Assembly: GCA_965221075.1 (NCBI GenBank)
Contig: OZ244865.1
Location: 2,164,126 to 2,228,125 of the forward strand
DNA length: 64,000 bases
Reading direction: 5' to 3'
Origin: Limisphaerales bacterium
GTDB taxonomy: Bacteria > Verrucomicrobiota > Verrucomicrobiia > Limisphaerales > AAA164-E04
Part shown: piece after piece, positions 16,666 through 19,600 of the stretch
How the letters are laid out: each line of letters opens with the position of its first letter
How positions within the stretch are numbered: the first letter of the stretch is position 1
The notes under the pieces: model-generated
The model's database searches: none
What the model was told of the DNA's origin: nothing
The model's input: the letters and a program-made list of their open reading frames with translations, nothing else
Position numbers and translations under genes: made by a program

Positions 16666-19600
16666 CTAGAGCTCGATGCTCCGCCCGTTGCCGTGGGGCG
16701 GCACCTGGAAGAAGAGCCGGACCGGGAGCGCGTCCGCCCGCCGGCGGTAGGGATCCAGCGAGCCGATGCCCGACATCCCGTTGAGCTTGAGCAGCGCCGC
16801 CAGCCCCTCGGGATCGAGCTGGGCGCCCAGACCGTGGCAGACCAGCGAGGTCTGGATCAGGGGGCTCTCCTCCAGGCGCTCCGGCTTGGCCGCGTGGATG
16901 CTCTCCATGGCGCTGAGCACGTTCTCCTGCAGCTCCCGGGCGGAGTAGGAGAGGGTTCCCACCGGCAGGAGGATCTGGGCCGACCGGTCCATCCGGTAGG
17001 GCACCGGGCCCCCGCCGTGCGGCAGCTCGAGGCTCCCCTCGAAGGACTCCGGACTCTCCCAGGGATCGGCCGCGTAGAGCAGCGAGAGCTCCACCTGGGA
17101 GTCCGGCTCCTCCTCGCGGTCCTCTTCGGCGGCCCGGGCCAGCTCGCTCTCCAGCGCCTCGGTGATCTCCTCCAGCCCCACCAGGATCCGGTAGTCCACC
17201 TGGTGCTTCCAGTAGCCGGGCCCGGTGGGGATCTTGCGTCCCAGGATCACGTTCTCCTTGAAGCCGCGCAGGTGGTCCTTCCACAGCCGGGTGGAGGCGT
17301 CGGTGAGCACCCGCGTGGTGTCCTGGAAGGAGGCCGCGCTGATGAAGCTGTCGGACTCCAGCGAGGCCTTGGTGATGCCCAGCAGCACCGGCTCGGCCAC
17401 CGCCTCCTCCCCGCCCTTGCTGCGGACCTGCCCGTTGACCTCCTCGAAGTGGCCCCGGTCCACCTGCTCCCCGATCAGGAAGGGGGTGTCGCCGTGCTCG
17501 GTGACCTTCACCTTGCGCAGCATCTGCCGGACGATCACCTCGACGTGCTTGTCGTTGATGGTCACTCCCTGGAGGCGGTAGACCTCCTGCACCTCGTTGA
17601 CCAGGTACTCCTGAAGCTCCTGGGCGCCGCACACGTCCAGGATCTCCTGGGGCACCACCGGCCCCTCGGTGAGCTGCTGGCCCTTCTTGACGTAGTCCCC
17701 CTCGAAGACGATCACGTGCTTGGCGATGGGCACCAGGTGCTCCTCCCGGTCGCCGGTCTCGCGGTTGTGGATGATCACCCGGCGCTTGCCCCGGTCGCTG
17801 GAGCGCTTGCTCCGGGCCGCCTGCTCCTCCTCGACGGCGCCTCCCTTGCCGAACTCCACGAATCCGTCGATGCGGGAGATCACCGCCGCGTCCTTGGGGC
17901 GCCGGGCCTGGAACAGCTCCAGCACCCGGGGCAGGCCCCCGGTGATGTCCTTGGTCTTCTCGGTCTTGCGCGGGGTCTTGGCCAGGAGGGTGCCCGCCTT
18001 GATCTTCTTGCCCGACTCCACCAGGATGTGGGCCCCCGAGGGGATGGGGTAGTCGGCCAGGATCTTCCCCCGCGAGTTGCGGATCTTGATCTGGGGGTGC
18101 AGATCCTCCTTGTGATCGATGATCACCTTGGCCTCCCGCCCGGTCATCTCGTCGATCTCCTCCTTCATGGTCAGGTCGGGGATGATGTCCTCGAAGAGCA
18201 CCCGGCCGGCCTTCTCCGAGAGGATGGGCACGTTGTAGGGATCCCACTGCACGAAGATGGTGCCCTTCTCGATCGGCTGGCGGTCCTCCACCGAGATCAC
18301 CGCCCCGACCACGATCGAGTACCGCTCCAGCTCCCTGCCCTGCCCGTCGACGATGGTGACCTCGCCGTGCTTGTTGAGCACGATGTTGTTGCCGTCGTCC
18401 AGCTTCACCTTGCGGATGTTGTGGTACTCCACGAAGCCCTGGTTCTGGGCCTTGATCTGGGGCTGCTTGAAGATCTGGGAGGCGGTGCCCCCGAAGTGGA
18501 AGGTGCGCATGGTGAGCTGGGTGCCCGGCTCCCCGATCGACTGGGCCGCGATGATCCCCACCGCCTCCCCGCCCTTGACCAGCTCGCCGGTGGCCAGGTT
18601 GCGGCCGTAGCACATCTTGCAGAGGCCGAAGCGCATCTTGGTCTCGCAGGTGAGCACCGAGCGGATCTTGACCTCCTCGATCCCGTGGTCCTCGATCCTC
18701 TGGGCCAGCTCCTCGTCGATCTCCTGGCCCTCGCGCACCAGGACGTTCTGGTGGTCCTCGGGAGCCCGGATGTCCTCGCAGGAGATCCTCCCGATCAGCC
18801 GCTCGCCGAGGCTGACCACCTCCTCCTCCCCCTCGTAGATGGCCCTGACCCTGATCCCGTTGGTCGTCCCGCAGTCGTCCTCCCGGATGAGCACGTCCTG
18901 GGCCACGTCCACCAGGATCCGGGTCATGTAGCCGGAGTCGGCGGTCTTGAGCGCGGTGTCGGCCAGGCCCTTGCGCGCCCCGTGGGTGGAGATGAAGTAC
19001 TCCAGCACCGAGAGCCCCTCCCGGAAGCTGGCCCGGATGGGCCGCTCGATGATGTCCCCCGAGGGGGTGGCCATCAGGCCCCGCAGCCCGGCCAGCTGGC
19101 GCACCTGCTGGCGGTTGCCCCGGGCCCCCGAGTCGACCATCAGGCAGACCGGGTTGAACTCCTGCTTGCCGTGGTTGGAGCGCAGGGTGCGCAGCATCAC
19201 GCTGGCGATCTGGTCGGTGCAGTCGGTCCAGGTGTCGATGATCTGGTTGTGGCGCTCGCCCGAGGTGATCACCCCCCGGTTGTACTTGCGCTCGATGCTC
19301 TGGATCTTCTTCTCGGCGTCCTGGATCTTCCTCTCCTTCTCCGAGGGGATGATCATGTCGTCGATCCCGATCGAGGCGCCCGCCCGGGTGGCCTCCCGGA
19401 AGCCCACCTCCTTGAGCCGGTCCAGGGTGGCCACGGTGACCTCGTGGCTGCACTCCCGGTAGCAGTGCCAGATCAGGTCGCCGATCTCCCCCTTCTTGAT
19501 CACCATGTTGGGGAAGCCGATCTCCTCGGGCCAGATCTCGCTGAAGATCACCCGGCCCACCGTGGTCTCGATGATCTTGCGCTCGCCGTCCCCGAAGGGC

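Follow-up and report, generated by a model that had tools for sequence, protein, structure and literature searches.

A C-terminal extension of the RNA polymerase beta-prime subunit in a Limisphaerales bacterium with homology to domain I of ribosomal protein uL1

We analysed a 64,000-nucleotide stretch of DNA (the window) from a Limisphaerales bacterium of the Verrucomicrobiota, with a focus on the 3' end of rpoC, the gene coding for the beta-prime subunit of RNA polymerase (RNAP), which continues well past the last conserved motif of the protein. The gene is part of the cluster tuf, nusG, rplK, rplA, rplJ, rplL, rpoB, rpoC, rpsL, rpsG, fusA, rpsJ and rplC, all encoded on the minus strand. It is enclosed by a minus-strand open reading frame (ORF) at positions 16666-24489, which, according to the ORF list and the translation, ends with a TAG stop codon at 16666-16668. 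Translation from the ATG at 21481-21483 yields a product of 1605 amino acids, and translation from an alternative ATG at 21379-21381 one of 1571 amino acids. Rpb1 domains 1-5 are found in the rpoC stretch in their canonical order (PF04997, PF00623, PF04983, PF05000 and PF04998; Pfam E-values of 1e-14 to 7e-77), and this order of domains, together with the rpoB-rpoC-rpsL gene order, identifies the protein as RpoC.

The rpoC frame runs for 182 codons beyond the conserved ...KIPTGPGY end up to the stop codon, thus covering the in-frame span 16669-17214. An earlier description of this DNA, made without database searches and referred to here as the sequence-only reading, had proposed a C-terminal extension that does not depend on the choice of the start codon. 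The extension is real and its sequence is exactly as quoted there; the span of 16669-17215 assigned to it is correct apart from its end, which is one base out, and the gene lies on the minus strand. The statement that nearly all codons of the tail end in G or C also holds, with GC fractions at the three codon positions of 0.74/0.43/0.96 in the tail, 0.64/0.39/0.99 in the rpoC body and 0.73/0.50/0.96 in rplA, which is the normal coding signature for this genome of ~69% GC. Two more assemblies of this organism, L085 and L086 (ENA analyses ERZ25072662 and ERZ25067238), contain an identical 182-residue tail. They were retrieved by an exact-match look-up of the window S12 protein, match the window with a nucleotide identity of 99.96-99.98% and have rpoC gene calls of 1605 and 1608 amino acids. 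Since the indel errors of the assemblies with this tail affect different genes, it is very unlikely that the tail stems from an isolated frameshift or the loss of a stop codon. These frameshift errors (at 11079-13121 in L085 and at 10391-12544 in L086) split fusA in one assembly, and split rplB and merge rpsS, rplV and rpsC in the other; they are typical of a long-read consensus, are evidence of the independence of the assemblies and call for caution by users of these sequences. A frameshift or lost stop, or a tail without conservation, had been named in the sequence-only reading as findings that could overturn its proposal; instead, the tail was reproduced in other assemblies and is kept in one relative. 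No tandem or internal repeats appeared in the tail, on which no repeat finder was run specifically.

The sequence-only reading recognised no family in the tail. The profile-profile and structure-prediction searches that it suggested were run in frame and, together with sequence searches, revealed that tail residues 38-142 (16789-17103, minus strand; referred to as the module from here on) are homologous to domain I of ribosomal protein uL1 (L1), the product of rplA. The Pfam family Ribosomal_L1 (PF00687) matches the tail over profile positions 140-183 with an E-value of 1.9e-5 and 24.7 bits, against a gathering threshold of 32.2 bits, and independently matches P0002, a homologue from a related genome, with an E-value of 1.2e-4 and 22.1 bits. 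In a BLASTP comparison of the tail with the L1 protein of the same genome, two co-linear high-scoring segment pairs were obtained, one aligning tail residues 38-69 with L1 residues 37-68 (E 9e-6) and one aligning tail residues 69-124 with L1 residues 159-214 (E 5e-7), which skip L1 residues 69-158. When the same comparison was made with an rplA product without domain II, the two segments merged into one with 32% identity over 88 residues and an E-value of 3e-15. The best match of a phmmer search against PDB sequences was the 137-residue engineered first domain of Thermus thermophilus L1 (2OUM, 2OV7, 2VPL; E 5e-9), followed by dozens of L1 chains; the alignment to 2oum_A is a single stretch with only a one-residue gap, in which residues 23-67 are co-linear with the first half of the module. 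When 1.84 billion representative proteins were searched exhaustively with phmmer, genuine bacterial and organellar L1 proteins were returned with E-values of 3e-5 to 5e-4, and an hhalign comparison of a two-member module alignment with an L1 alignment gave a probability of 96.3% and an E-value of 1.7e-9.

Domain I of L1 has a circularly permuted RAGNYA fold, into which domain II is inserted as a TOPRIM-like Rossmannoid unit (Balaji and Aravind, PMC2034487). To obtain the isolated domain I, Tishchenko et al. (2007, PMC2175363) removed residues 68-158 of the Thermus protein, that is, domain II, by joining Gly67 to Gly159. The tail has its junction, LELPHGGG followed by PVPYRMDR, at the same site as this engineered join: domain II (~90 residues) is missing at G69/P70 (~17005-17010), and the multiple alignment has a clean deletion of ~90-100 columns between these two residues in the tail and in P0002, so that neither protein has the two-domain architecture of uL1. 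Residues that define the fold are retained, namely D38, D50-P51, G60, L64-P65-H66-G67, G86, S89, L95, N98 and P111. The rplA family is the probable ultimate source of the module. No similarity between the tail and rplA was detected at the DNA level, which rules out a recent duplication of rplA and indicates that the divergence from rplA is old.

That a folded domain follows a short linker, as the sequence-only reading had expected, is in agreement with the AlphaFold2 prediction made with a nine-sequence alignment, in which the core has a predicted local distance difference test score (pLDDT) of 84-91. The model is a four-stranded antiparallel sheet on two helices, which is predicted to superpose on the isolated domain I of uL1. 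In a Foldseek search of the PDB with this model, 2OV7, 2VPL and 2OUM were the top matches, with E-values of 2e-7 to 7e-6, template modelling (TM) scores of 0.56-0.68 and a root-mean-square deviation of 1.9-3.4 A over ~100 residues. Based on the sequence and structure comparisons combined, we conclude with high confidence that residues 38-142 represent a natural domain-I-only uL1 paralogue fused to beta-prime. The positions of the module and of the other features discussed here are summarized in Table 1.

Table 1. Features of the rpoC tail and its surroundings in the window.
Feature	Position	Strand	Basis
rpoC (RNA polymerase beta-prime) CDS including stop	16666..21483	-	Pfam Rpb1 domains 1-5, gene calls, translation check
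Tail residues 1-37, ordinary variable acidic beta-prime tail serving as linker	17104..17214	-	resembles relatives' short tails; net charge -8
L1 domain-I-like module, first half, tail residues 38-69 = uL1 37-68, with DP and LPHGxG motifs	17008..17103	-	BLASTP, phmmer, multiple alignment
L1 domain-I-like module, second half, tail residues 70-142 = uL1 ~160-228	16789..17007	-	Pfam, BLASTP, hhalign, Foldseek
Long helix, tail residues 89-111, best-conserved part of the module	16882..16950	-	19/23 identical to P0002; helix in both AlphaFold2 runs
C-terminal 40 residues (143-182), basic, net +3, without uL1 counterpart, predicted unstructured	16669..16788	-	pLDDT <50; no Pfam family
End of rpoBC unit / start of str operon: weak terminator-like hairpin and promoter-like hexamers	16616..16682	-	hairpin scan; hexamers by eye
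rpsL	16183-16563	-	downstream of rpoC
rpoB ORF	21489-26930	-	upstream of rpoC
rplA (uL1), genuine two-domain	28093..28794	-	Pfam PF00687, E 8e-60

The short beta-prime tails of relatives read xHRKARLKPLVEISEEEPE..., and residues 1-37 of the window tail, which end with ...EEDREEEP, look like the same element, indicating that the extra material was appended after an ordinary acidic tail. The acidic linker noted in the sequence-only reading, there given as ~30 residues, is 37 residues long, and a helix is predicted at its residues 14-34. The boundary between the beta-prime tail and the module lies somewhere within residues 12-37 and is not fixable more exactly. LEEITEAL at tail residues 14-21 (17152-17175) is a near-anagram of LEEAIETL, which is part of helix 2 of the L1 protein of the same genome (rplA residues 21-28). 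Judging from the sequence, the L1-derived part may begin as early as residue 14, with an acidic insertion ahead of strand 1. Within the module, the helix formed by residues 89-111 carries the L..EN and KP motifs, which are invariant in uL1. The extreme C-terminus (residues 165-182, 16669-16722) resembles the strand-hinge segment of L1 once more, which could be a remnant of a second partial copy or due to chance. A reading of the final 42 residues as another L1 fragment was also considered but has no statistical support (pairwise E-values of 0.13-0.17 and no Pfam match), and the His residue is not kept in P0002.

Several residues that are invariant in L1 are replaced in the tail: in rplA numbering, R51 is changed to W, Q55, R58 and K205 to E, S215 to V and T217 to H, and M218 falls at a gap. 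According to the titles of PDB entries, T217, M218 and G219 are the residues that have been mutated in a series of structures of the complex between T. thermophilus L1 (TthL1) and 23S RNA. Besides the invariant RNA-facing residues, the module lacks the basic surface of uL1, as it has a net charge of -11 and an isoelectric point (pI) of 4.4 compared to +4 to +7 and ~10 for domain I of the genuine L1 protein of the same genome. As the invariant basic and polar residues are lost and the module is strongly acidic, the canonical L1 RNA site is probably not recognised, and canonical L1-type RNA binding by the module appears unlikely. At Rfam gathering thresholds, no L1-leader RNA family was found in the window. 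The module is thus a homologue of uL1 domain I without being a functional uL1 family member, since it scores below the Pfam threshold, is devoid of domain II and of the invariant residues that face the RNA, and is oppositely charged.

The sequence-only reading had also suggested a search for free-standing homologues, and P0002 is apparently one: it is a protein of 157 amino acids with 52-54% identity to the tail (E 3.7e-25), encoded in a related genome by an ORF immediately ahead of rpsL and present on two contigs, L083 (24.8 kb; ERZ23495228, scaffold_1860) and L084. With amino-acid identities of 97% for S12, 96% for S10, 85% for S7, 79% for EF-G and 76% for L3, this organism is a moderately close relative of that in the window. 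The homology between the two proteins spans tail residues 37-180 and hence includes the end that has no L1 counterpart, where 14 of 26 residues are identical over YRRR..VRLxFxVP..GNG. Both L083 and L084 break off at an identical point, 184 nt ahead of the ATG called for P0002. These 184 nt contain stop codons in all three frames (nt 41-74), the stop-to-stop frame comprises 204 codons, and none of the frames resembles the end of beta-prime or the linker of the window. Most simply, the module is not fused in the relative as it is in the window and appears to be encoded there by a separate small gene. L083 and L084 derive from different samples and share 99.8% identity in their initial 1012 nt, and their upstream 160 nt have no counterpart in the window. 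That the two contigs start at one position points to a repeat or to the edge of a rearrangement in that genome; an additional tandem module copy was considered as the cause and dropped, as by eye the start of the contigs has only ~9 nt in common with the 3' end of P0002. P0002 has no stop codon at the position where rpoC ends in the window and extends for 19 more codons, through the T-run and the promoter-like region (L083 599-658; ..NRGFFSGKSLAIGIAST), from which it follows that the C-terminal boundary of the module is not conserved. The most economical history would be that a small gene located between rpoC and rpsL joined rpoC through the loss of the rpoC 3' end and its stop codon, since the related genome has the module at the same place, upstream of rpsL, and not visibly fused.

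The tail has a narrow distribution. A metagenome pattern scan with the 262 residues ahead of the tail yielded 80 beta-prime relatives with 52-73% identity over these residues, and all 80 have 28-45 residues after GTG[FY]. The closest species representative found in a genome collection, an uncultured Pedosphaera metagenome-assembled genome of the Verrucomicrobiota with 60% identity, has a tail of ~47 residues, which is followed by rpsL. All 81 relatives examined thus have 28-47 residues past the conserved end, and when the six-frame translations of the 86 loci retrieved were searched with a profile, none of the 81 relatives obtained through beta-prime similarity had a fused or free copy of the module. 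A metagenome pattern scan with tail peptides gave no match, and a genome pattern scan returned only two beta-prime relatives, both without the module. A word-indexed protein search returned no match with the tail alone, only one irrelevant fragment with the last 377 amino acids and, with the two-member profile, P0002 only, which was found once P0002 itself was part of the query alignment; as this search also missed the beta-prime protein of the organism itself and many relatives when linker-containing queries were used, its negatives for this query do not equal absence. In the exhaustive phmmer search, P0002 was the sole homologue besides true L1 proteins and repeat-protein noise. P0003-P0008 and P0015, which were also returned by that search, are repeat proteins with scores inflated by repetition and were discarded on inspection. 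The view of the sequence-only reading that the extension is specific to a narrow lineage is therefore in accordance with our data, the module being known from this species and one relative only.

A few further features of the locus deserve mention. A weak terminator-like hairpin lies over the rpoC stop codon (16668-16682) and is followed by a T-run. Upstream of rpsL, a putative promoter with the hexamers TTGTAA (16639-16644) and TACCCT (16616-16621), 17 nt apart, was read by eye; this hexamer pair did not pass the sigma-70 consensus scan of the tool used. The spacer is kept at the DNA level in L083 (~610-700), where it reads TTGCAA-17-TAGGCT, and the block looks like a promoter of the str operon. 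Compared to the Pedosphaera beta-prime, the rpoC body (~17800-21380, minus strand) contains several small lineage-specific insertions, among them ~20 residues near the N-terminus, YPDDEEEK within the zinc-binding region and ~15 residues ahead of ...GKRRVIIHN. The rpoB ORF of 1813 codons on the minus strand has ~530 extra residues in its N-terminal region, mainly at ~25050-26800, which are rich in G, A, L and E and in which units of ~90 residues recur; Pfam found only the flanking Rpb2_1 domain. The rpoB gene call on L085 is 1448 amino acids long, for which the gene caller presumably chose a later start. The rpoB insertion and the rpoC tail are seen together within the same organism only (the window, and L085 over 14.5 kb with 99.98% nucleotide identity), and the related contig that carries the module has no rpoB.

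We propose that a diverged uL1 paralogue, the domain II of which would have been deleted at the natural Gly-Gly hinge, was joined in frame to an ordinary acidic beta-prime tail. The C-terminus of beta-prime is located beside omega at the base of the clamp, and its position is that at which the linker of the Rpb1 C-terminal domain (CTD) emerges in Pol II, near the RNA exit. The ~37-residue acidic linker could tether the folded module flexibly to the beta-prime C-terminus and let it sample this face of the enzyme. The module keeps the L1 fold and would no longer recognise the L1 site on 23S rRNA or mRNA. We speculate that the helix formed by residues 89-111 and the Arg-rich C-terminal peptide YRRR...VRL contact a partner, which might be RNAP itself, nascent RNA or a component of the ribosome or of its assembly. 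The idea that the module is a tethered adaptor is tentative and in our judgement falls well short of probable. For the explanation as a whole, which is a compromise between the well-founded identity and architecture and this adaptor mechanism, we consider the chances to be about even.

Several points weigh against this explanation. Neither the tail nor P0002 reaches the gathering score of the uL1 family. The AlphaFold2 prediction from the single sequence was poor, with a pLDDT of 38, yet it gave the same L1 domain-I order of secondary-structure elements, and, since the alignment used for the other prediction contained L1 sequences, the Foldseek matches do not count as evidence separate from the sequence homology. 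The number of nonsynonymous substitutions per site (dN) between the window and P0002 is 0.45 for the module compared to 0.02-0.18 for rpsL, rpsJ, rpsG and rplC, and the nominal NG86 ratio to synonymous substitutions (dN/dS) of 0.75 is compatible with weak constraint on the module; all statements on conservation and selection are based on one pairwise comparison of two lineages only. Unlike the acidic copy in the window, the P0002 module is neutral and the whole protein has a net charge of +8, so that the functions of the two might differ and the acidity might be secondary. The reverse event, a split in the relative, may have occurred instead of the fusion, as both contigs of the relative end 184 nt upstream of P0002 and do not show the direction. 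Lastly, the location of the beta-prime C-terminus is background from established RNAP and Pol II structures.

The dN/dS value overstates neutrality because the third codon positions, with ~96% G/C, are near saturation: their identity is 58% in the module and 65-71% in the neighbouring genes, and the random expectation was estimated to be ~47%. Between the window and P0002, the identity of the module is 0.67 at codon positions 1 and 2 compared to 0.58 at position 3, and all three indels are multiples of three. Conservation is uneven, with 83% identity (19 of 23 residues) in the helix formed by residues 89-111, 25-30% in the loops and 52% over the module as a whole, and synonymous differences occur within the helix. 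Provisionally, this comparison argues for a real, if relaxed, constraint on the module.

Among the other explanations, the one that survives best is that the module is a decaying rplA-derived pseudo-domain, which was captured by read-through of rpoC and is tolerated at the surface-exposed C-terminus without a selected function. Such a history would fit the very narrow distribution with absence from the 81 relatives, the fast evolution seen in dN and the nominal dN/dS, the loss of functional L1 residues and the stop position that is not kept in P0002; in addition, a genome of ~69% GC makes long frames by chance, as seen from its spurious ORFs of ~2000 amino acids. However, the amino-acid identity of 52% despite near-saturated synonymous positions, the indels in multiples of three, the stronger conservation of codon positions 1 and 2, the strongly uneven conservation between helix and loops and the retention of the fold-defining core residues all speak against a module free of selection, and we regard this explanation as unlikely.

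Alternatively, the module might have retained L1-type RNA binding and capture helices 76-78 of 23S rRNA, or a mimic of them in the rplK-rplA leader, on nascent transcripts, by which it would act as a chaperone for the co-transcriptional folding of the L1 stalk or couple transcription to L1 autoregulation. In the literature, the isolated domain I of L1 is sufficient for specific binding of rRNA and mRNA (PMC2175363) and can enter ribosomes in vivo (PMC10931766), L1 is reported to have a strong RNA chaperone activity (PMC1920258), and uS4 and uS10 are already known to act on RNAP at the RNA exit channel (PMC10931766). The retained fold with several of the invariant core residues, the basic nature of P0002 and the Arg-rich C-terminal peptide conserved in both copies would be consistent with such a role. 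Nevertheless, L1 invariants of polar or basic character (R51, R58, K205 and the T217-M218 loop among them) have been exchanged, in three cases for Glu, the module has a net charge of -11 and an L1-leader RNA family was absent from the window at the Rfam thresholds, which makes retained RNA binding distinctly improbable.

The charge of the module (-11) and linker (-8), the tethering through a flexible linker and the replacement of the basic residues R58 and K205 and of Q55 by Glu could also be reconciled with an acidic nucleic-acid mimic or autoinhibitory plug that, like region 1.1 of sigma, occupies the basic DNA/RNA channel of RNAP until it is displaced. As the P0002 module is neutral and the whole protein basic, the acidity is not conserved, and we give this idea very little chance. 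Finally, an artefact, that is, a frameshift, lost stop codon or misassembly that joined rpoC to a separate ORF, would agree with the separate ORF and the three-frame upstream stops in L083 and L084, and a systematic error shared with the error-prone L085 and L086 is conceivable in the strict sense, but it is hardly credible given the same 182-codon tail in the window and two assemblies with indel errors in different genes, the homology to beta-prime tails (to residue ~36) and to L1 (from residues 37-38) that continues in the same frame with no gap, and the continuous GC pattern at third positions across the junction.

In the most far-reaching reading, the organism could have an RNAP with a covalently tethered, ribosomal-protein-derived domain at the position equivalent to that of the eukaryotic CTD, which physically links the enzyme to nascent rRNA, ribosomes or assembly intermediates and which evolved from a free one-domain L1 paralogue encoded between rpoC and rpsL. 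We see only a small chance for this scenario; if true, it would mean that ribosome assembly during transcription, or the coupling of transcription with translation, is hard-wired in a verrucomicrobial lineage. More generally, if the module has a partner, it would provide a compact and genetically tractable case of a link between the transcription and ribosome machineries and of the origin of a CTD-like tether in bacteria, and if it has none, a clean case of the capture of a ribosomal-protein paralogue followed by loss of function. For genome annotation, some caution is advisable, as such a tail could draw a spurious L1-type annotation.

When compared to known systems, the module is most similar to the engineered domain I of Thermus L1 (residues 1-67 joined to 159-228), which is its best match by sequence (E 5e-9) and by structure (E 2e-7), has the same fold without domain II and is joined at the Gly-Gly hinge right after LPHG. 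It differs from this construct in that it is natural and fused to beta-prime, has an additional basic end of 40 residues and may lack the N-terminal helices of L1; furthermore, its pI is 4.4 compared to ~9.8, and the T217/M218 loop and other RNA-facing invariant residues are replaced. Evolution has arrived at the domain-I-only form of L1 which crystallographers built in 2007, and this minimal L1 is encoded within beta-prime as well as by an apparently separate small gene. With the uL1 protein encoded by rplA in the same genome, the module shares the DP, LPHGxG, G..S[FY], L..EN and KP motifs and 32% identity over 88 residues. Unlike uL1, it consists of one domain instead of two, is not ribosomal, stays below the Pfam threshold, has the opposite charge and shows no similarity to rplA at the DNA level.

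Known lineage-specific RNAP insertions include SI3 of E. coli beta-prime, which belongs to the catalogued insertions SI1-3, and the non-conserved domain of Thermus beta-prime. To our knowledge, an L1-type fold is not among the folds of the described insertions, and we know of no reported L1-derived domain of RNAP. Likewise, full-text literature searches gave no title or abstract that describes an L1-like domain on beta-prime, which is a weak negative and not proof of absence. Similar to lineage-specific insertions (discussed in PMC2939025), the tail is an extra domain that is confined to one clade and lies on the surface of a large subunit, in this case beside the rpoB N-terminal and the small rpoC insertions. 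In contrast to the known insertions, it is not placed internally at a catalogued position and represents a C-terminal appendage on a flexible linker, beyond the last conserved motif. Ribosomal-protein folds that operate on RNAP near the RNA exit channel are also found in rrn antitermination complexes, in which uS10 (NusE) and uS4 are located around the channel (PMC10931766). However, these are genuine ribosomal proteins that are bound non-covalently, whereas here a diverged uL1 paralogue is linked covalently, and we do not claim a role in antitermination. In eukaryotes, an appendage on a flexible linker is present at the topologically equivalent site, the C-terminus of the largest RNAP subunit. 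This Rpb1 CTD is a disordered heptad-repeat array regulated by phosphorylation, whereas the tail described here consists of a single folded alpha/beta domain and a short basic peptide, and the two are not homologous. Taken together, domain accretion on a large RNAP subunit is a known phenomenon, and what is new is the C-terminal, tethered position of the added domain and its fold, which is that of the RNA-binding domain of a ribosomal protein.

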